A stretch of 64,000 nt of DNA from Escherichia phage ECML-10, in the sequence record OL631479.1, one strand, 5' to 3'. This document shows, one piece after another, positions 23,661 to 56,880 of this stretch; the first letter of the stretch is position 1; each line of letters starts with the position of its first letter. The notes beneath the pieces are model-generated. The model saw only the letters and a list, made by a program, of their open reading frames with translations, did no database searches and was not told the DNA's origin. The position numbers were made by a program, and so were the translations under genes.

Positions 23661-24008
23661 ATGCCAAAGATTAAGTCGGTATTAATGTGGGCAGCTGTTG
23701 TAGCTTTTGTAGGATACTGGACTTGGGAAACTGAATTAAAAGATATCGGATATACCAGTCTTGAGAGCAAGGCATGCATTGGCATAACCGATGCATTCAG
23801 GCAAAATGCTATGGATCACGAATGTGTTGATGCAGATATAGATGAGAAACTGTCTAAGGACAAGGATTTTTACCATGGTCATGCCTTGCTTGATAGTGGT
23901 GACACTGTGGAATTCTGGTCGTGGTTCCGTGAAGATGGAACAATAAAGACAGCAGTAAAGATTTCCAACAAAGAGTTAATGCTGTTGCAGCAGAAGGAGG
24001 TGCAATGA
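23661..24008 (+). CDS. hypothetical protein with N-terminal signal/anchor
   Basis: GAGGTAGAGAGA RBS; N-terminal VLMWAAVVAFVGYWTW. Confidence 0.45.
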   Translation: MPKIKSVLMWAAVVAFVGYWTWETELKDIGYTSLESKACIGITDAFRQNAMDHECVDADIDEKLSKDKDFYHGHALLDSGDTVEFWSWFREDGTIKTAVKISNKELMLLQQKEVQ

Positions 24009-24292
24009 TTTGGATATCCTACACTGATGGCACCATGCTGTATACCGCAGGTACTAGGTATGAAGTTCAGGAGGACGATAAAAAATTTATCGTAAAAACA
24101 TTTGACAAGGACGACAACCTTTTGCTAGAATTGACTTACAAGGTTGGAGAGGTATCCGATATCCAATTGGATTGTGGTCATAAAGATAATCCACTCAAAA
24201 AACCTGGAATAGGCAAGGCTTCAGAAGAACGTTTGTCTCGTATTGCAGAAAGCGTTTCTCCCCAAAAATCTAAGAAGAGGAGTAGAAAATGA
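24005..24292 (+). CDS. hypothetical protein
   Basis: 95 aa ORF overlapping upstream stop. Confidence 0.4.
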   Translation: MIWISYTDGTMLYTAGTRYEVQEDDKKFIVKTFDKDDNLLLELTYKVGEVSDIQLDCGHKDNPLKKPGIGKASEERLSRIAESVSPQKSKKRSRK

Positions 24293-30109: not shown

Positions 30110-30264
30110 TAGTATAGTGACTAACAAGAGGTGAGGAATGACAGATTTTACTGAAGCTTTAATGATGGCCTTGTCTGTTTTAGCGCTATCGGTGTGTTTT
30201 GGGGCGTTATTCACATCTCTGGTTAAAGTTTTACATACAGTATTATTACCCAAGGAGCGCAGTA

Positions 30265-30516
30265 ATGACGAAGATTGACTTGAATGCTGGCGACCATGTT
30301 GTTGTCAAATGCATCGGAGATTATCTTGGATTCACAATCGGCAATACTTACGAGGCGGTAGTGGCGAAGGTTTATCATGATAAAGTCCTCAGTCTTGTAT
30401 TTGACTGCGATGATGATGGGGATGACCGATACGTCTGTGAGGTGCTGGCACGAGACGATAGTGAAGACCAGAAATTCCTGGTTATTGAACTGAACGGTAT
30501 TTTTGTAGAACGTTAA
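30265..30516 (+). CDS. hypothetical acidic protein
   Basis: ATG at 30265; 83 aa. Confidence 0.4.
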   Translation: MTKIDLNAGDHVVVKCIGDYLGFTIGNTYEAVVAKVYHDKVLSLVFDCDDDGDDRYVCEVLARDDSEDQKFLVIELNGIFVER

Positions 30517-32605: not shown

Positions 32606-34030
32606 TAAGTTCTTCTCTTTTCTTTTACCGAGTAATTCGGGTTTTCTGTTCTCTTCGGTTTGAAGGGGTATGGAGATACACCTGAGTGAACAGGGTGAAC
32701 AACCGAACATTTGGCTATGGCATTAGCATGGCGAAGCGGACGGGTGACGAAAGAGGGGCCGGAGGACACCAGTCACTGCCATATGATATATGGGTGATAA
32801 CCTGAAGAGTCTGAATAAGTGTTTAAGTACCAGTCAGAGGAAAAGGTGAATGGTAGCCGAAGGGGGAGGGGGTTTCTTGTATCTTTAATTTGTATATTAT
32901 GTATACATTCGTAAACCAATCTCATCTGAATCTGTTTACCACACAAAGTGGATAGAGACAAATATTACCTATTAAACTTGAATTATTTATAGAAAATACT
33001 ACAACACTACTTAAGTATTTGATTTTACACACAAATCCTGCAGATATTCACCCCCCATATTTAACATACTTGTAACATATTCCATACTCTACCTGACCGA
33101 TCAACTCACCCAACTACATCCTCCATATTTCCCCTGTCTGTACTACCCCTGCCCAGCCGGGAGTCCCGTCATATCTGGCTTTCCAGCAAATATCACACCC
33201 ACAAATATCATTGCCTGAAGAGGGTTTCATCCCATAATACATGCCTTACCTGAAGAGCGCTTCATATACCCCGTAAATTTTTTAATTGACACCCTCCCCG
33301 CCGCCGGAGGGGGTTGGCTTTTCCCACACAGACCCGAAGAGCCAGCCAGAAATATCTGAACAGGTCCAGCTATGCCACGATTTTGACCTGACCTACAGGA
33401 GTGCTTCCCTGTCAGGAGCCGGTAGCGACTGGAGTGCTGCCAGGCGGACGAAATGGGAATACTTCTCATTCTTATAATAATTCTCAAATATCGAGGCAGT
33501 GAGGCAAATTAATAGGTGAGGCCGTTCACACAGTGGCACAACATTTGCAACCTATCTTGTGTGGGGGAATGAGAATACCTATCATTGTGAGAATAGTTAT
33601 CATTACGGGCAATTTAACATAATACCCATTATGCGCACCACTGGCGATCCATACAGGGATTGATAACATGAGTTACTGTTTATGCATATAACAATTATAT
33701 TTCTTACTATTTGTGTGGGATATAGTTAGCAGCCAATAGATTAGATATTGACCTGTAGACTTCTGACCGTCCAGACGTCTAAACGCCCACACAACAAGGC
33801 TTATACATACATCGCTGAATGTAAACAGGGCCGCAAAAATGCTACCATACCAGATTGTAAATTTTTCATACAGCACTTGACAAAGAGGAGAAAAACTTGT
33901 CTGACACTTTAGACACAATAGTGACATAATGGTGACACACTGGGCATACTCAACACACTGGATACAATAACAGTTGTTACTATTGCATGCTTCACTGTTC
34001 ACGTATAGATTGTTTACACAGAGATGATAA

Positions 34031-37469: not shown

Positions 37470-37754
37470 TTATTTATTGATAGCGTGCAGCGGGAAAGGT
37501 ACGCCAGGTTGATAGATAACCTTTACAACCTCATCAGGACAAAAGAAATTGCAGAACTCACCGCAATAGGCCTCATCCTCTTTCAACTCTTCATCAACAT
37601 ACTCAAAAAAGTAGTCGATGCTTGGATAATCTTGACCAGGGTTATAATCAACCATAGTGAGGACCAGTTCAAGATCATTGCGGATGATATGCATACCAGC
37701 TTTTAAATACTTCGCTTCCATTTTTACTACATCGCCAGCGGTAACAATAGCCAT
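37470..37754 (-). CDS. hypothetical acidic protein
   Basis: start placed at internal ATG (MAIVTAGDVV) with RBS. Confidence 0.45.
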   Translation of the reverse strand: MAIVTAGDVVKMEAKYLKAGMHIIRNDLELVLTMVDYNPGQDYPSIDYFFEYVDEELKEDEAYCGEFCNFFCPDEVVKVIYQPGVPFPLHAINK

Positions 37755-37979
37755 GGTTTTAACTCCTGTTTCTGTTAATGATTGGAGGCATAACCCCCCT
37801 CGACAACTCTTATTATCCATATTGTAGGGCTTGATGCAAGTACTTCTTTAAAAAATTTTTAAGTGCCTTGGAGGCCGCTGTAACGCCAAAATAATAAAGG
37901 CCATGCAACCGCATAGCCTTTATGTGATTATATCGCTGCAGGCCCTGCTAGGGGCCTTATTTTGCATCATTTGCCGGAA

Positions 37980-45005: not shown

Positions 45006-45199
45006 TTGTCGTCCCCTTTCTTACGGATATAAATGTGAGAACCTGCCTGTATATAAATTTCTCGACCATCTTCTGCGAAGATGTGGAATACACGGTCACC
45101 TTCGTACTCAATACGAGATATCTTCATAATGGTCTTTCCACCTGGGATACGGATCTCGTCCCCCACAGCGATGTTCCATGCAGATTTAAGCTTAAACAT
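45002..45199 (-). CDS. hypothetical protein
   Basis: ATG after GGAGGGTGCAG; 65 aa. Confidence 0.45.
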   Translation of the reverse strand: MFKLKSAWNIAVGDEIRIPGGKTIMKISRIEYEGDRVFHIFAEDGREIYIQAGSHIYIRKKGDDK

Positions 45200-45437
45200 C
45201 TGCACCCTCCTTTGGGAACTTGAACTCTGGCATAGCCATATACGCTACAACAGGGTTGTGATCAAAGTAGAACTGACCGTTAATTATCCCGGTTTTACTC
45301 ACATAGTTACCAGATCCTGCAAGAACAACCTCGCAAGCTCCGAAATCTACATTGCCATCCTCATCAGCCATGGCTACGATATACTTTCCTAGAGGCATGT
45401 TTTTAACGCCGTCTACAAATGTCCACCCTTTGTTCAT
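45192..45437 (-). CDS. hypothetical protein
   Basis: CAGGAGATAAAGT RBS; 81 aa. Confidence 0.45.
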   Translation of the reverse strand: MNKGWTFVDGVKNMPLGKYIVAMADEDGNVDFGACEVVLAGSGNYVSKTGIINGQFYFDHNPVVAYMAMPEFKFPKEGADV

Positions 45438-46958: not shown

Positions 46959-47373
46959 GGTATGCCAGCTCCTCTTCCGCAATTTCAAAAAACTCAGTCC
47001 AGCACTGTGGCATATTGGAGTTACCGAAGTGGCTTTCATAGTAAAGGTTCTCACCACTTGGAAGATAGAAATCTGTTACCTCATAGAATCCACAATCGTC
47101 GCACTCGCCTTCTTCAAACTTAGCCTCAACCTTAATACCGAGGAAGGTGAAAAGTTTATGGATATCTTCAGTTTCGAACTCCCAGTGAATGTTGTTTTCC
47201 GCATCGGTGTAGAACTGGATCAGCAGACCATTGTCCAGTTTACCAAAATACTCTGTGAAGTAACTTCCTTCCCAGAAATCTTTATGACAAATAATATCCA
47301 TGCGTTTGCCCATAATAATGGTGTGAGCGTTTTGGGCATCGTCACGAATCAGTTTTGGCATTTCATAGATCAT
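46948..47373 (-). CDS. hypothetical acidic protein
   Basis: CCGGAGAACTAAG RBS; 141 aa. Confidence 0.45.
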   Translation of the reverse strand: MIYEMPKLIRDDAQNAHTIIMGKRMDIICHKDFWEGSYFTEYFGKLDNGLLIQFYTDAENNIHWEFETEDIHKLFTFLGIKVEAKFEEGECDDCGFYEVTDFYLPSGENLYYESHFGNSNMPQCWTEFFEIAEEELAYRDY

Positions 47374-47441
47374 CTTAGTTCTCCGGGTTCAACAGGTGGT
47401 GGTGCTACAGGAAGATCATAAAACATGGCTATCACAGTCTC

Positions 47442-47639
47442 TTACACAGGAATTGCTTCAAATAGACCGTTATCTATACCGTCCTTCAGATAGAGATTAT
47501 ATTCTATGTCGGTATCTGTATAAAGGGCAGCATCCAGCATTCTATCCGTGAGTCCATCCATCGGGTGGAGAAACCACCACCCACGCCAGTCAAAGTAACA
47601 GCCTGGTGCATCTTCTCTTACACGGATTCGATAAATCAT
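47442..47639 (-). CDS. hypothetical protein
   Basis: ACAGGAGG RBS; 65 aa. Confidence 0.45.
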   Translation of the reverse strand: MIYRIRVREDAPGCYFDWRGWWFLHPMDGLTDRMLDAALYTDTDIEYNLYLKDGIDNGLFEAIPV

Positions 47640-47735
47640 GGGCAGTGGCCTCCTGTTAGCTATACATCCCAGTTTTCTTCGTTCATCACGTCCTCCCGTT
47701 CTATGAAGTTATAATTGCACACCTTTCAACCTGTG

Positions 47736-50081: not shown

Positions 50082-50446
50082 TATTTGTCTCCTTGTTCTT
50101 CGTTAGTGTTTGCCGTGTGTGCAAACCCTGCTTGAATTAATTTGTCCTGAACTTGAGCCAACAGGCCCATTGCAAAACTTGTGGTCCCAGAGAGGGCCAT
50201 CAACATATCTCGTTGTTGAGCTACCCAACCTAAGGCATAGTCCAAACGACGATATTTTTCTTCTTCACGCAGAGCCTGAAATAATTGTTCAGCCTCCGGT
50301 TGTTGTGTGAGCTCCTGAAGTCTTCCCATGAAAGAAGAAAGCACTAGCAAAAGAGACACTTGATCTTTACTTAACCCTAAGAAAAATTCTTGAGGTTGTT
50401 CTTGCTCGTTCATCGCAACCGACTCTTGATCGTTCATTTGTTCCAT
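50081..50446 (-). CDS. hypothetical protein
   Basis: GGAGATTCCATA RBS; 121 aa. Confidence 0.45.
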   Translation of the reverse strand: MEQMNDQESVAMNEQEQPQEFFLGLSKDQVSLLLVLSSFMGRLQELTQQPEAEQLFQALREEEKYRRLDYALGWVAQQRDMLMALSGTTSFAMGLLAQVQDKLIQAGFAHTANTNEEQGDK

Positions 50447-50529
50447 TATGGAATCTCCGATTTTATTTGAACAACATAGAAGGAGACACTATTTTAGCAT
50501 CCCCTTCTGTAAATTACAATAGGTATTTG

Positions 50530-50775
50530 TTAGCCAATCACTTCGAAAGTTCCCCAATTCCCGTCCAGCAGGCAGGTGATCGGATCCCCATCGTCGTCAA
50601 AGATTTCAAAGTTTTCAGCATCCAGGATGTGGCCCTCGAACACAATACTTTCGTCGCCACCACCAGAGATAACAGCGTATTCCTTACCTTGTGTCAAGTT
50701 TTGACACCCTTTGCCACCAAAACCTACTTCAACACAACGTACTTTCTGTCCTGCGCGAGCAACTACTTCAGCCAT
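50530..50775 (-). CDS. hypothetical protein
   Basis: CAGGAGACC RBS; 81 aa. Confidence 0.45.
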   Translation of the reverse strand: MAEVVARAGQKVRCVEVGFGGKGCQNLTQGKEYAVISGGGDESIVFEGHILDAENFEIFDDDGDPITCLLDGNWGTFEVIG

Positions 50776-50792
50776 CTTAAGGTCTCCTGATA

Positions 50793-51095
50793 TTAATCGT
50801 CAAGTTCAAAATAGATTTTAACAGCTTCATCAAAGATTGGAATCCCGATGTTGTTGATAAGCTGCCAAACTACCATATCTTTACCGGGGTCTGGGAGAAT
50901 GTCAACCTTTCTCCATGCGCTGTATATCCAGTTCGGACCACCTTCTGCACTAACTGGCAGATTTTCACCAGCCTCCTGCAGATACTTATACAGCAAAAGA
51001 TATTCTGGATACTCTAGAACACTGTCCTCTGTAGTGTATAGCAGTTCACGGTATACTTTTAAGAACCCTGCGGGGGTGATGTTTTCAGTCTTCAT
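50793..51095 (-). CDS. hypothetical protein
   Basis: start at MKTENITP after AGGAGAGG. Confidence 0.45.
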   Translation of the reverse strand: MKTENITPAGFLKVYRELLYTTEDSVLEYPEYLLLYKYLQEAGENLPVSAEGGPNWIYSAWRKVDILPDPGKDMVVWQLINNIGIPIFDEAVKIYFELDD

Positions 51096-51477
51096 TTGCT
51101 GCCTCTCCTGCATTCATCAGATCTGCCATAGCGTCACCAACGAAGAGAACAACCACATCGTTGACAGCGTCAGTATCATCTTTGTTGACGTTGCTGAATT
51201 TAGGACACACAGCAATGATCATATAGACACCGTTACCCACCTGAACTGTCCGTGTGGTGCACATCATGGCGGTATTTGTGCCTTCTTTGAAGGCGAAGCC
51301 TTGAAGACGCTCCTCTAAAGTGTTACCGGTAGATTTCAGAAGCGCCAGCTCGTCCAAGGCATAGATGATATCTCCGGAAGTTAGTGTTGCCTTGCCATCA
51401 GACACCATAATCACTCCATCAGCACCGTCAAGCTTAGAGGCTTCAAAGATATCAATATCCCAAATATTTTTCATCAC
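51085..51477 (-). CDS. hypothetical protein
   Basis: GAGGAAG RBS; 130 aa. Confidence 0.45.
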   Translation of the reverse strand: MMKNIWDIDIFEASKLDGADGVIMVSDGKATLTSGDIIYALDELALLKSTGNTLEERLQGFAFKEGTNTAMMCTTRTVQVGNGVYMIIAVCPKFSNVNKDDTDAVNDVVVLFVGDAMADLMNAGEAANED

Positions 51478-51734
51478 GCTTCCTCGTCGTCTAAGGAGTT
51501 GAAGATTTCACCGAAGTATTCTAAGACTTCTAGCTCCCGTGTGGTGCAGAAAACACAGTCACCGTTGTCATCCTCGATAACGGCCTCTTTACCCAGCACA
51601 TCTACTTCAAGTTTATCGTTCAACAGGACAGCCCCTGTGTAAACTTTGTCGGCTGTGCAGTCCCGAAAAGCAGAGTCCTTCTCCAGATAGTCTGGCTTAA
51701 CCTTGGCTTTAATTCGTTGATATTGTTTGGTCAT
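51474..51734 (-). CDS. small Cys-containing protein, paralog of 51798-52052
   Basis: start at MTKQYQ after AAAGGGGA; KPDYLEKDSAFRDCTADKVY / DDNGDCVFCTTRELEV mirrors the neighbour. Confidence 0.45.
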   Translation of the reverse strand: MTKQYQRIKAKVKPDYLEKDSAFRDCTADKVYTGAVLLNDKLEVDVLGKEAVIEDDNGDCVFCTTRELEVLEYFGEIFNSLDDEEA

Positions 51735-51797
51735 TACTGTGGTCCCCTTTCGTTTGGATAGGGCCATTATAATAGGTCCTATCACTGTTGTCAAGTA

Positions 51798-52052
51798 TTA
51801 ATGTTCAGGTTTTACAAAAACTACCTCGTTAACAGTGCACCAGACAGAGTCCCCTTCATCATCTTTAAAGGTAAGGCACTGTGCTGAGTTTTCCAGCTCA
51901 TCAATCTCTTCTTGTGATAAAGGAGCCCCTTCTTCCAGAAGGGCTTTTACCAAAGGGTTCTCACAAAACTCTGCTTCATAAATTGCACCGACTGTGCAAT
52001 CTTTAAAAGCTCGGTCATTTGCAACGCATTCTGGCTTCAAAGTAATTTTCAT
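51798..52052 (-). CDS. small Cys-containing protein, paralog of 51474-51734
   Basis: GAGGAGA RBS; KPECVANDRAFKDCTVGAIY / DDEGDSVWCTVNEVV. Confidence 0.45.
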   Translation of the reverse strand: MKITLKPECVANDRAFKDCTVGAIYEAEFCENPLVKALLEEGAPLSQEEIDELENSAQCLTFKDDEGDSVWCTVNEVVFVKPEH

Positions 52053-52128
52053 CTTGGCAGTCTCCTCAGTTATTTAAAAATCAACGCTCTGTTTGTGTGA
52101 AGCATCTTATATCTAATCTTACTTCTTG

Positions 52129-52500
52129 TCAATGGCTATTTTCAATCAGCCACGCAGGGTCGAGGTAAATTTGTTGGCGTGTTGCCCAATGACAAACTTC
52201 ATTGTACATCTGAATCTCTTTGTCTGTCAATTCACGAATAGGCTCATCTATACCCTCATTTTTGTGGTAATCCCAGTCGGCATCGATTTCCCACAGCCAT
52301 GACTTGTTGTCACCACGCTTACGCACACAAAAGTCACCCGGACGGCCTGCCAATGCATTTAAGAACTCGTTCTCCGCTCGCTCTTGGAGAATACTAAGGA
52401 GCAAAACGTTAGAACATGACCGTAGAATATGCTTCAGCTCACAATCATCAATCTCAACTTCAATACGTTGTTTGACTGTGTGGGTACCTTTTACTAACAT
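52129..52500 (-). CDS. hypothetical protein
   Basis: start at MLVKGTH after AGAGGAGG. Confidence 0.45.
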   Translation of the reverse strand: MLVKGTHTVKQRIEVEIDDCELKHILRSCSNVLLLSILQERAENEFLNALAGRPGDFCVRKRGDNKSWLWEIDADWDYHKNEGIDEPIRELTDKEIQMYNEVCHWATRQQIYLDPAWLIENSH

Positions 52501-52510
52501 CCTACCTCCT

Positions 52511-52705
52511 CTAAACGAACTCTGCAAGGGTTGTGTTGTTCACTGCACCGCAGTAAATGGAGTATCCCAGCCCATTAGAGTGCAGAAACCACGGCGTTCC
52601 GAAATTATCTTTCACGTAGACATCGCCGTTGCTTGTAAAGGGCCAATATTCTTCGCCAAGGGTAAAATACCTACTCATACCTTCAGCAAGATACTTTACT
52701 TTCAT
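52511..52705 (-). CDS. small protein, W-F/Y-L paralog family
   Basis: GAAGAGGACC RBS; GTPWFLHSNGLGYSIY. Confidence 0.45.
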   Translation of the reverse strand: MKVKYLAEGMSRYFTLGEEYWPFTSNGDVYVKDNFGTPWFLHSNGLGYSIYCGAVNNTTLAEFV

Positions 52706-52929
52706 AGGTCCTCTTCTACAGCTACAAACTTGGCAAGCAGGGTGGTTCCGTAGATATGATACTCACCGTTTGCCAGATGGGAGATAAACCAGGCAATCCC
52801 TTCCTCGTCTTTAATCATCTTGTTTGCACGATTTTTATCGTAATAAACCTCGTAGGTCTTTCCTTCTTTAAAGAATGACAGGTCTGTCATCTTTTCTTCT
52901 ACAAAAGTAGCTTTAACCAAAGTTGTCAT
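52702..52929 (-). CDS. small protein, W-F/Y-L paralog family
   Basis: AAGGAGA RBS; EGIAWFISHLANGEYHIY. Confidence 0.45.
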   Translation of the reverse strand: MTTLVKATFVEEKMTDLSFFKEGKTYEVYYDKNRANKMIKDEEGIAWFISHLANGEYHIYGTTLLAKFVAVEEDL

Positions 52930-53210
52930 TGATCGGTCTCCTTCTTGTTAAGTCTGAATACTGCAATAATAACATTCCCAAGGTGCAGTGTCAAATCATT
53001 TCCAAGATACCACAACATTCCACGGTCATCTTTGATGAAAGGGTAACAATCTGGTGCCTTCCAGACATTGTACACTTTCCCAACCTGAAAGAAATCAGGC
53101 CCTGTTGGGATTTTGGTACCAGGCCACACTTGAGATACCTGAACACACTCCACCTGCATAATAACAGGGATAGTCATAGATGTAAATGTTTTTGTTGGTT
53201 CTACTACCAT
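52926..53210 (-). CDS. small protein, W-F/Y-L paralog family
   Basis: start at MVVEPTK after AAGAGGAG; RGMLWYLGNDLTLHLGNV. Confidence 0.45.
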   Translation of the reverse strand: MVVEPTKTFTSMTIPVIMQVECVQVSQVWPGTKIPTGPDFFQVGKVYNVWKAPDCYPFIKDDRGMLWYLGNDLTLHLGNVIIAVFRLNKKETDQ

Positions 53211-53259
53211 AAAAGTCTCCTCTTTGCTCAACAACACTTCCATGTGTTGATAGTTTACA

Positions 53260-53613
53260 TTAGTGACAATCACCCCAATTACGACCACACAAGTATTCAC
53301 CTGTGATCTGGAACGGGACTCCCATCATTTTAGAAGCTTGCCAGAAGCAATGTACCACCATTTCGCCCACAGGACTCCAGATAAGTTCAAGCTTTCCGTC
53401 ATCGTTCAGGATAGGATCGTACACCGTGTTTCCGTCTCTGTCAACCACTTCGTTTCCGTTTTCATCCTTGCGTGCCTTTTTGTACTTATGACCGTCAAAC
53501 ACATGAAGTTTGGCCTCCTGCTCTGCCTTAAATGCTTCCAATTCTTCAATTGTGTCGAAGGTGTACACAGTCTTATACTTAGGCGTGTCAGGAACCTGAA
53601 GTTGGTACTCATC
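53260..53613 (-). CDS. family A DNA polymerase, exon 2 (C-terminal segment)
   Basis: begins DEYQLQV and ends GRNWGDCH, matching the recalled T7 gp5 C-terminus after the HDE motif (HDEIQV ... ends in CH). Confidence 0.7.
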   Translation of the reverse strand, partial: DEYQLQVPDTPKYKTVYTFDTIEELEAFKAEQEAKLHVFDGHKYKKARKDENGNEVVDRDGNTVYDPILNDDGKLELIWSPVGEMVVHCFWQASKMMGVPFQITGEYLCGRNWGDCH

Positions 53614-54456
53614 CATCTGTTCAGGTAGGTCGTTAAGCTACCCCGCACCATTACGTGCATAGCCATACAGTTTCCTGTATGGATCGGACTACCTCACTGC
53701 CTTGGTAACAAGGCACCTCCCATTTCGACCGCACTTGCTGGCCTACTCTACTCGCTTCTTCACACCAACCTGTGTTGGAGCTATGCTTTCGATAGTCTCT
53801 GAACGTTACTACCAGGTGTAGTTTTTAGAGATATGTTTCCACTGTCTTCTTTGCTTTATAGCCCTGACGGTCTCATAAGGATATCCAAGATCCCTAATCT
53901 CGCATTGTCGTAGACCACTCTGCAACAGTTCGCAAATCTCTATTACCTCATCTTCTGTCAGCACAGCGTTGGCATTATACTCACCAACTGGCCTTACTCT
54001 GAGGTCATTATCATAGGCGTGCTTGATATTTCCACCAGGGGTGGTCCATTCCAGGTTCCAGTATGCATTGTTGTACTTATTCCCATCCTTATGGTTCACC
54101 CATGTGAGCCTTTCAGGATCTGGGTTTGATACAAAGCATTCAGCAACCAGGTGGTGGACACCTTTTGTGCACTGCTTCCCCTCGATTAGCATGGTTACGC
54201 AAAGGTAACCTCTACCATTATCAAAACAAAACATTGTTGTATGATCACGTTTCGATAAAGGTATTGTTCCATCATCAAACACGGTATACCCGTGATAATC
54301 AGCTGTTCTAGCCATTTTAACTACACCCCTTTAGTCTTCGCTGCGGATTAGCATATTGAGCTTTTACCATACTCAGGTGTAAAAGTCAACTTAGCTTTCC
54401 CGTCAATTAAAGAGGTTATTCGACATAGATCACTCTATGAAGCCACAATGTTATTT
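53614..54456 (-). mobile_element. group I intron in the DNA polymerase gene carrying an HNH homing endonuclease ORF
   Basis: exon 1 ends ...IIYYH then K-stop, exon 2 starts DE: the insertion sits inside the HDE motif; exon 1 ends in U and intron ends in G on the coding strand; about 840 nt. Confidence 0.65.
53809..54315 (-). CDS. HNH homing endonuclease (intron-encoded)
   Basis: motifs GVHHLVAECF and WVNHKDGNKYNNAYWNLEW typical of the HNH family. Confidence 0.8.
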   Translation of the reverse strand: MARTADYHGYTVFDDGTIPLSKRDHTTMFCFDNGRGYLCVTMLIEGKQCTKGVHHLVAECFVSNPDPERLTWVNHKDGNKYNNAYWNLEWTTPGGNIKHAYDNDLRVRPVGEYNANAVLTEDEVIEICELLQSGLRQCEIRDLGYPYETVRAIKQRRQWKHISKNYTW

Positions 54457-56880
54457 ATGGTAATAGATAATACGACGAACACCTTCATCGTACCACCCAC
54501 GCTTCACCATTTGGTGGTGCATAAGTATCCCAACCAAGTCACACAGCGATGCACCACCATTCTGTTGGTATGCATTAAGTAAAGAGTGTTTAGATCGGGT
54601 CCAGATGGCATGACCATCAAAAGAGTAGATAAACTTCTTACCCGTTGCTTCCCAGAATTTCTCCAGATCCTCTTTACGGCCCTTAAGACCAGGGTTGGCA
54701 TCCCAAAGCGCATCGATTACCCTTTGTCCCAACTCTGGAGAGATGTCCAGCATATCTGCAACTTTATCTTTTTGTGCCCCGTACATAACCCCATACGTGA
54801 TAGGTTTACCGTCGTTACGGGACACCTCTCTGCCTGCTACTTTTGTATATGCCTCAGCATTGTTTTGGTGTGCGTCTCCGTTACTTACAACATCGTAATA
54901 CAGGCCGTTGTCGAACTCAAAGGCACCCCAAGCCCCGATAAGCTGCTCTAAGTTGGACCCGTCGATACCGATCTCAAAGTATCCTGGAGGAACACCCCAC
55001 AAGCTACGCATCTCTTTACCCATAACCACTTTAGGAGAGGGTTTAGGCATGTTTGCACAAATACTGTGTTTCTGTCTGGAAGTGTTTGTTAATCCAGAGC
55101 TTTTAGCAGGAAGCTTATGGTCAATCTTCAAACGTGGGTGATTAAGAAGACCAGTGTCAACCTTATCCTCCTTGATTGGATCAAGTACCGATCTGCGGTT
55201 TCGCAATGATAACCATAAGACGATATCTTTAGCCATCTCTCCGTTCAATTTTTCAAGATTCGGACACAGGTGTCCAAACGTATCTTTCAGTTGCGGAGAA
55301 GTAATAAGTGCCCTAGCTTTTCTACGTATTTTCCCGAATACTTCCTTTTTAATCCTTTCGGAGTTAGGAAAGCTTCGGAACTTGTGCACGGTTGTCTGGA
55401 ACTTAGCATCAGTTTTGTTCCAGAAGTTGATAATTAGGTCACAATACTCTGACTCCAAAAGCTCGTCCATATATGCATATACTCGTGCATCAACATCTGC
55501 ATCAGGTAAAGCTTTCTTCTTGCTGTCTTTAGTTACATCCTTAGTTCTCCACATTGTCGGAAGCCAACCAGCACTGATCAGGTATCGCTTAATGTCGTCC
55601 TGATTGCTGATTTTCATAGGTATCTTGCAGTCCGGCATTCGCTTCTGCTGTAGATCACTTATTGCCTGATCCATTAGCTCTTTAGGTAAAGGTTGTGGTG
55701 TGGAGGTGCCCTTAATATAGCCTCTCAAGAAATCAGCCATCTTATCGTGGTCTTTGCAGCCCATCTCTTCACACCATTTTATCCCCATCTTACTGACATC
55801 TCCTGTAGAGGTAAATGCTCGCTTAGGTGGGGCTTTGAACTCTAAAGCACTCATGTCCACAGGATAGCCAAGCTTATCTTTTAACCATTTCCAACCATTA
55901 TTAGAGATTGTCCCATCTTGGTTAAACGGCTTTTCAGGGAACTTGGGCCGCTGAGACATTGACAGCTCTTTTAAAGGCAGTTGTGGTTCAACACGATCAG
56001 CGATTTCTTTCATCCACGCATCGCAACGGTCACGTAAAGCAATAGCTCCATCTATGTCGAAGTATACACCCTGACGGGCCTGCAGCTCCATCAGGAAGTG
56101 CTGCAACATGCCTCGACGTAATGCGTTCTTCCAGGTGATCTTCTTGAACCCTTTCGGCTTCTCTTTGGCAGGATCGTACATAAAGTTCTGCATGTCAGAT
56201 TTGCCGTAGAATACACCTTTTGATTCCGCTACCAGCTCTTTCCAGAGCAGCTCCTGGATGATAACGTCCTCAAATACACGATCCACATACTTCCATAACG
56301 GAAGATCGCGCCAGTCATCAATTTGAACTTTCTGGTTACCAAGGGCGTAGCCCCATGCCATAAGGCCGTGAGGACCAACAGGCTGCATTTTCTTAGTAAC
56401 CGGGTTGAATACAGAGTCCGGACAACCTTTTGGTAAAGGGCGATCAGGCCACAAGATTCGGCTCATCGCCAACGTATCAAACAGGTTAACCTGGTGATCG
56501 TTGATAGTCCCCATACATTTAGGATCACGGAACATATCAAAATGAATACCAGATAATCTTTCCATCAGCATAAAGTCATAACTGTAGCAGTTATGGCAGT
56601 TCAAAGCTGTTGGTGACCAGTCAGAATTTCCTGTAAGCCAACCTTCCAACTCTGAAAAATCTGCTATGCGAACTTCAAAATCTTTATAAAGAGTTTTCTT
56701 TGCCAGAATGAAGTTCTTAGCCTTTTCTATATCCTCCTCGGAGTAGTGTGTGCGGTCATTTAGAGGAAGGAACAGCATAAAACGGTTCTTATTCAGCTCT
56801 TTAAACAGGCCGCAGTGATAATAAAGATCTAGGTCTTCTAGTAAACCAGAGGCCTCAAGGTCGAAAGACCACATACTCAT
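54457..56880 (-). CDS. family A DNA polymerase, exon 1 (3'-5' exonuclease and most of the polymerase domain)
   Basis: AAGGAGAAC RBS; N-terminal exo motif FDLEASGL; motif-B-like RNDGKPITYGVMYGAQ; reading frame stops one codon after the H of HDE. Confidence 0.8.

Follow-up and report, generated by a model that had tools for sequence, protein, structure and literature searches.

What occupies the stretch between the DNA polymerase gene and the single-stranded DNA-binding protein (SSB) genes of vequintaviruses, and what might its small genes do for the phage? We analyzed 64,000 nucleotides (nt) of Escherichia phage ECML-10 (OL631479.1; hereafter the window, to whose full length all positions refer), concentrating on two groups of small genes—set A (A1 and A2) and set B (B1, B2, and B3)—and on a neighbor, A0. 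For these genes we computed coding status, paralogy, conservation, promoters, a fold prediction, the superfamily membership of B1–B3 and A0, and copy-number variation. The window phage is a Vequintavirus (an rV5/FFH2-like myophage). Across 50400–53700 it is 96–97% identical to more than 100 Vequintavirus genomes (rV5, FFH2, Murica, and BASEL phages such as RudolfGeigy), in which every gene of this region is annotated as hypothetical, the sole exception being the second DNA polymerase exon. Pfam gave no match above cut-off for the nine small proteins considered here, and literature searches returned nothing on these genes.

All genes of the locus lie on the minus strand, in the order B3-B2-B1-X-A2-A1-Y-Z-A0; the DNA polymerase precedes them, and downstream come two SSB genes and a macro-domain gene. 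B3 (52926..53210; 94 amino acids [aa]; phrog_12922) carries an extra N-terminal segment of ~35 aa ahead of the motifs shared by set B; it is followed by B2 (52702..52929; 75 aa; phrog_12623), the central paralog of the set, and B1 (52511..52705; 64 aa; phrog_12802). X (52129..52500; 123 aa; phrog_6273) is the last gene of the B3-B2-B1-X cluster and separates the two sets; it shows no similarity to either in pairwise alignments. In set A, A2 (51798..52052; 84 aa; phrog_12544) has an insert of ~16 aa, predicted to be helical, between its two conserved motifs, and A1 (51474..51734; 86 aa; phrog_11936) ends in an acidic tail. Beyond them lie Y (51085–51477), Z (50793–51113), which matches Pfam DUF7238, and A0 (50530–50775; 81 aa; phrog_4927). 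An initial annotation of the sequence had called the five set A and set B open reading frames (ORFs) and proposed local tandem duplication next to the macrodomain and replication genes. The five genes and the duplication both hold at those minus-strand positions, within a run of accessory genes that separates the DNA polymerase from the SSB and macro-domain genes.

Each chosen ATG is preceded by a Shine-Dalgarno sequence: AGAGGAG six nt ahead of 53210 (B3), AAGGAG for 52929 (B2), AGAGGA for 52705 (B1), GAGGAG for 52052 (A2), and AAGGGG for 51734 (A1); the ribosome-binding site of X is GAGGAGG. ATGA start/stop overlaps join B3, B2, and B1, which are thus predicted to be translationally coupled, and X starts 11 nt past B1. 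Set A has promoter sequences of its own. A perfect sigma-70 consensus precedes A1 (51766..51794, minus strand; TTGACA-N17-TATAAT, 12/12 matches); since it overlaps the longer extension of the ORF, the ATG at 51734 is favored as the A1 start. A sigma-70-like site precedes A2 (52104..52132, minus strand; TTGACA-N17-TAAGAT, 10/12 consensus matches). Promoter-like sites number 17 in the region, where 8.1 ± 2.8 would be expected, and 11 of them lie on the coding strand. The hexamers are conserved while the spacers vary, for the A2 promoter across six other genomes and for the A1 promoter, whose position is conserved too, in related genomes; this is the pattern expected of functional promoter sites. 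Together, these signals suggest early transcription by the host RNA polymerase from conserved sigma-70-type promoters.

Are these genes truly related to one another? We judged the significance of pairwise Smith-Waterman scores against 2000 shuffles, formal alignment being the point at which the initial annotation had said its paralogy could fail for want of similarity. A1 and A2 score 90, compared with 26.6 ± 4.9 for the shuffles (z = 13; 0/2000 as high); BLASTP aligns them over 77 columns at 30% identity (E = 7e-9), and each matches the PHROG family of the other. Within set B, the B1-B2 (z = 7.0) and B2-B3 (z = 9.5) alignments are likewise significant. The B1-B3 score is only z = 2.9, so the relation of these two is transitive, by way of B2. 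A1/A2 and B1/B2/B3 are therefore true tandem paralogs, and, judging from identities of 30–37%, the duplications are old. That the likeness arose by chance, or that the ORFs are not genes, has a negligible probability: it is refuted by the shuffles and by low ratios of nonsynonymous to synonymous change (dN/dS; dS 0.1–0.4), and further countered by the ribosome-binding sites, conserved synteny, ~115 orthologs for each gene, and the genes' own PHROG families.

The residues that these paralogs share bear out most, but not all, of the motifs first described for them. In set B, eight positions are invariant among 24 family members (F20, G23, Y26, D41, G44, W47, A66, and F68 in B2 numbering). Of the two motif halves claimed for all three proteins, GxxW(F/Y)(I/L) occurs in B1, B2, and B3, but GxYxIY is missing from B3 and confined to B1 and B2. 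The quoted set A motif is present in both proteins, and the positions kept across orthologs are D13, A15, F16, D18, C19, Y25, N32, D64, D65, G67, D68, V70, C72, and T73 (A2 numbering). The description of set A as having conserved cysteine pairs was overstated: among 14 set A sequences only two cysteines are invariant, C19 (in DCT) and C72 (in xCT), and the CVFC of A1 becomes WVFC, YVCC, or YVRC in orthologs, its first cysteine replaced by W or Y. With two invariant cysteines and an unconserved CxxC in A1, these "pairs" define no zinc site. A zinc-ribbon or Cys4 zinc-finger reading was rejected, as set A has neither four conserved Cys/His ligands nor a Pfam zinc-finger match.

How conserved are the genes within and beyond the genus? 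All five are present, in fixed order, in about 113–115 of 118 Vequintavirus records, and the whole order B3-B2-B1-X-A2-A1-Y-Z-A0 is identical in all six vequintaviruses compared. Nei-Gojobori estimates with orthologs from six other vequintaviruses give dN/dS of 0.017 for B3, 0.12 for B1, 0.20 for B2, 0.12 for A2, and 0.086 for A1, so that every gene is under clear purifying selection (dS 0.1–0.4). A tblastn search with A2 and B2 found 115 phage records, every one a Vequintavirus, at ≥80% identity; word-indexed protein searches and a scan of IMG/VR returned almost exclusively near-identical Vequintavirus proteins. Profile searches of the polymerase-proximal regions of four other Vequintavirinae genera (Ro1, 4MG, phiTE, and W70) found no homologs (E > 0.6). 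Within the genus, these are conserved, core-like genes, neither patchy nor fast-evolving.

Over longer time scales, however, the locus does change by duplication, divergence, and the insertion of genes. A variant of B3 led to divergent vequintavirus-like contigs in which set-B-type genes number four (L022; 5001–6785) or seven (L021, 5001–7424, and L023) rather than three. In some of these lineages B3 is separated from B2 by two inserted genes, one Ead/Ea22-like (200 aa) and one of 63 aa; L021 and L023 also carry a new acidic gene of 90 aa ahead of A2. The rapid evolution that the initial annotation had suggested for these accessory functions is thus absent from the genus itself, but copy number and insertions do vary in divergent lineages.

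Smaller changes were also seen in individual genes. In some B3 orthologs (P0035/P0039), 11 residues of the loop that precedes the DDxG motif are duplicated in tandem and in frame (PDCHPFIKEKA / PNCYPFIKDDR), which indicates that this loop tolerates insertion. The database variant P0013 is an in-frame A1::Y fusion, which arose through a deletion between copies of a CTTR tetrapeptide that the two genes share. Y itself contains AFKEGT...MMCTTR, which resembles the set A motifs, and is the best non-self match of the set A profile, at a nonsignificant E = 1; it may be a degenerate paralog. Several database versions of A2 are frameshifted at one spot, after ...ALLEEG (window 51927–51943, minus strand), which coincides with a GGGG run within a 7-bp inverted repeat (CCCTTCTGGAAGAAGGG) and may mark either a spot prone to sequencing errors or a site of genuine slippage.

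Does set B have more distant relatives? A set B profile hidden Markov model (HMM), searched exhaustively over 1.84 billion representative proteins, retrieved single-domain and multi-repeat relatives at E = 1.5e-12 to 5e-4. Members share a motif pair, FTxGKxY ... DDxGxxW, which is common to B1–B3 and A0. Besides the vequintavirus proteins, the divergent single-domain relatives are P0076, P0079, and P0088; others carry two (P0083 and P0089), three (P0090), four (P0077, P0084, and P0085), or five (P0080) tandem domains. P0089, the only fusion, joins two domains to a C-terminal DUF3310, which is also the sole Pfam match above cut-off among the distant relatives. The superfamily ties together PHROGs 12802, 12623, 12922, 4927, 3523, 3249, 10169, 16833, and 17857; its best Pfam match, DUF7244, reaches 14.5–21.8 bits, below the cut-off of 27. 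Six further high-scoring candidates (P0078, P0081, P0082, P0086, P0087, and P0091) were rejected as spurious, being repeat proteins of other kinds that match the DxxGxxW(F/Y) segment only.

The superfamily HMM recovers B1–B3 at E = 1e-18 to 1e-23. A version built without A0, A1, and A2 also found A0 among the 558 ORFs of the window (E = 1.6e-4), which argues that A0 is a fourth member at the locus, and the multi-repeat relatives match the A0 family, phrog_4927, at 1e-9 to 1e-23. Profile comparison thus places set B and A0 in one widespread phage domain superfamily. Two small, conserved plus-strand genes elsewhere in the window, at 24005–24292 (phrog_11938; E = 0.013–0.02) and 30199–30516 (phrog_12851; E = 0.075–1.2), give weak superfamily matches and contain FTxGxxYE / DDDGD-like motifs; they may be further members.

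Relatives with two, three, four, or five domains in one chain offer a Rosetta-stone argument for a different arrangement, the main functional rival considered here, in which B3, B2, and B1—possibly with A0, A1, and A2—form a hetero-oligomer and do not bind targets independently. The ATGA overlaps that couple translation of the three set B genes, and the fixed gene order in the genus, fit such an assembly as well. However, a copy number of three, four, or seven and genes inserted between B3 and B2 are ill-suited to a complex of fixed stoichiometry, and A1 and A2 each have a promoter of their own. We consider the hetero-oligomer unlikely.

Does set A belong to the same superfamily? Its two proteins were described at first as one of two separate sets, and both sets are real, but the division is probably too narrow: A0 is an additional member, one whose first motif (GKEYAV) is set-B-like and whose second (DDDGDxxxC) is set-A-like, and sets A and B may be parts of one whole. 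Direct hhalign comparisons are not significant, either between A and B (probability 2.3%) or between each of them and A0 (20.6% and 0.65%). When distant relatives are added to the profile, A0 becomes significant and set A borderline. A1 and A2 themselves score E = 0.17–0.9 against the superfamily HMM; a divergent A1 ortholog scores E = 0.0027–0.013, in an alignment spanning the two motifs (FRDCTKGKVY aligned to FFTxGKEY, and LVDDVGDYVY to IxDDxGxxWY). The hhalign probability for set A against the superfamily rises from 25% to 50%, and P improves from 7.7e-4 to 1.6e-4, as divergent sequences are added, which leaves the link borderline. A1, A2, and the multi-repeat protein P0084 all weakly match phrog_17459. 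On this evidence—suggestive, not decisive—sets A and B probably form one superfamily.

The alternative is that A and B are unrelated families sharing short acidic DDxG turn motifs, set A having a distinct fold and using its cysteines for a disulfide, metal binding, or redox chemistry. The low probability in direct A-B profile comparison and the superfamily scores of A1 and A2 fit this alternative, as do the two invariant set A cysteines, which are absent from set B, and an AlphaFold2 model of set A, which is of low confidence (predicted local distance difference test [pLDDT], 53.7) and does not converge on a barrel. The divergent A1 ortholog and the rising hhalign values given above point the other way, and we regard two unrelated families as less probable than not, if a serious alternative.

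What fold might the set B proteins adopt? AlphaFold2, run on the set B alignment with no templates, gave a confident B2 model, of pLDDT 89.6 and predicted template-modeling score (pTM) 0.77: strand 1, a long loop holding a short helix, and then five to six more strands. B2 is accordingly modeled as a small six- or seven-stranded β-barrel with a long β1–β2 loop. PDB entry 9AXB was released in 2024, later than the training of the AlphaFold2 network; with no templates used, the B2 model is therefore independent of it. That entry is Gp54 of Escherichia phage Bas11 (JohannLBurckhardt), for which a structure bound to CapRelSJ46 is also available (9ERV; Zhang et al., Nature 2024, PMC11578894). Gp54 is a barrel of six strands in which the β1–β2 loop is prominent, and its topology is described as "very rare in nature" (PMC11578894). 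The predicted B2 barrel, six-stranded over ~65 aa with its long β1–β2 loop, superimposes on 9AXB, and B1–B3 are thus predicted to have the β-barrel fold of Gp54; the assignment comes from one method and one predicted model. When Gp54 is read from the Bas11 genome, its F21xxG24 and G40xxW43 align with F20xxG23 and G44xxW47 of B2, and the set B invariant residues correspond to the Gp54 barrel core. In Gp54, G24 is an escape site and W43 an interface site (PMC11578894). A Foldseek search of the predicted viral structures in BFVD returned about 40 uncharacterized phage proteins of 60–170 aa (probability 1.00; TM 0.6–0.8), mostly from T1-like and rV5-like coliphages.

In Bas11 itself (L006), the superfamily HMM detects three to four small hypothetical genes at E = 1e-4 to 5e-3, and not Gp54: bas11_0048 (37578–37943), bas11_0041 (33759–33929), bas11_0071 (45147–45338), and bas11_0079 (47201–47653). 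Several copies of this domain, diverged in sequence, may therefore be present in T1-like phages.

What, then, could these proteins do? Gp54 binds and directly activates the CapRelSJ46 toxin-antitoxin defense protein, after partial unfolding (PMC11578894). It is the only characterized protein with this fold, and it acts by binding a host protein; for the proteins studied here, protein binding, a host or defense target, and any relation to CapRel are inferred. All six (A0, A1, A2, B1, B2, and B3) are acidic or near neutral (isoelectric point [pI] 4.1–6.5), which argues against nucleic-acid binding. We propose that the five genes are old tandem duplicates whose products serve as early, acidic protein-binding modules acting on host or defense proteins and diversified by duplication, a reading to which we give a probability of roughly 45%. 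The domain would be a small (60–95 aa), acidic, six-stranded β-barrel; two motifs would mark its core, FTxGKxY where strand 2 begins and DDxGxxW in the turn between strands 3 and 4. Host RNA polymerase would transcribe the genes early, with translation of B3-B2-B1 coupled, and each barrel would act as a stand-alone module docking onto a protein of the host, be it a takeover target or part of a defense. Conserved residues would form the core, and divergent loops and surfaces would direct each paralog to a different target; as copies duplicate and diverge, to three, four, or seven by lineage, the target set would broaden. Host immunity could in turn sense such modules, as it does with Gp54 and CapRelSJ46.

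Several results weigh against this proposal or qualify the fold assignment. A Foldseek search against PDB gave nothing below E = 0.7 and did not recover 9AXB. Profiles of the Gp54 family (phrog_7421, Drexlerviridae) compared by hhalign reach only E = 0.13 with set B and 0.2–0.32 with the superfamily, and HMM searches between superfamily and Gp54 family find nothing in either direction; lacking such a profile link, set B and Gp54 may have converged on a small barrel. Profiles of set A, set B, and the superfamily likewise matched no solved structure by sequence. To these must be added the weak superfamily scores of A1 and A2, the borderline profile link of set A, and its low-confidence model. 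The native function of Gp54 is unknown, and Gp54 homologs only three residues apart already fail to trigger CapRelSJ46 (PMC11578894); triggering is so allele-specific that no sensing behavior can be transferred to sets A or B. Finally, strong purifying selection and near-universal presence in the genus would suit an accessory role in housekeeping no less than one in an arms race.

Could the genes instead serve phage DNA replication or nucleotide metabolism, as accessory factors binding the phage polymerase, SSB, primase, or a nucleotide kinase? They sit between DNA polymerase exon 2 and the SSB genes, they are under strong purifying selection and present in essentially all members of the genus, and the DUF3310 fused to two domains in P0089 matches PHROGs annotated as nucleotide kinase. 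However, the syntenic regions of Ro1, 4MG, phiTE, and W70, phages that share the replication genes, yielded no detectable homologs, and tblastn finds both sets in Vequintavirus only. Related phages with the same replication genes thus do without these proteins, which makes a replication role less likely. Superfamily members are also found in T1-like phages, whose replication modules are unrelated, and Gp54 is dispensable for its phage (PMC11578894). We judge such a role quite improbable.

The gene next to B3, that of the family-A DNA polymerase (53260–56880, minus strand), is interrupted within motif C. The last residues of exon 1 are ...RRIIYYH, and the first of the ORF downstream are (M)DEYQLQV; the intron-less allele of phage ECP26 reads ...RRIIYYHDEYQLQV. 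The intron spans about 53617–54450 and contains an HNH ORF (53809–54315); a group I intron match (Rfam RF00028) spanning the HNH endonuclease ORF is subthreshold (29 bits, E = 1.5e-4). Related genomes show three states: no intron, a ~320-nt gap with no ORF, and an intron with HNH.

What this analysis adds is the predicted structural link of set B to the Gp54 fold and the recognition of a broad small-barrel superfamily, so far unnamed, to which A0 and perhaps set A also belong. If the match to Gp54 is right, the fold would be common among small early coliphage proteins, both in tandem arrays and in multi-repeat proteins, and would give a comparative handle on the native role of such proteins. 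About six adjacent genes, in a phage group represented in BASEL, become candidates for host-takeover, anti-defense, or trigger screens. In itself, a group of small hypothetical genes duplicated side by side in the early region of a phage is nothing unusual, and the relevance of the finding is mainly to specialists in phage defense. A bolder conjecture, which we hold to be doubtful, is that the Gp54 fold is no orphan and founds a very large superfamily, as yet unnamed, whose members are small, unfoldable β-barrel modules, which virulent coliphages would amplify in tandem—as separate genes or as multi-repeat proteins—into a diversifying library of binders of host and defense proteins. Arrays such as B3-B2-B1/A0/(A2-A1) would then be both counter-defense arsenals and the natural ligands that CapRel-type sensors evolved to detect.

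How do these genes compare with known systems? PHROG splits the window paralogs over separate families with no functional label. SH3-like small β-barrels, such as the RecD SH3 domain (PDB 5LD2), have five strands and another topology, whereas the set B model has six strands, and its structural scores are far weaker to such barrels than to 9AXB. Gp54 belongs to phrog_7421, while the set B proteins fall in other PHROGs and have no significant sequence similarity to it. Many superfamily relatives are multi-repeat polypeptides, whereas the window members are separate genes; and while Gp54 is a single-copy protein of a T1-like siphophage, the genes described here form a tandem array in a myophage.

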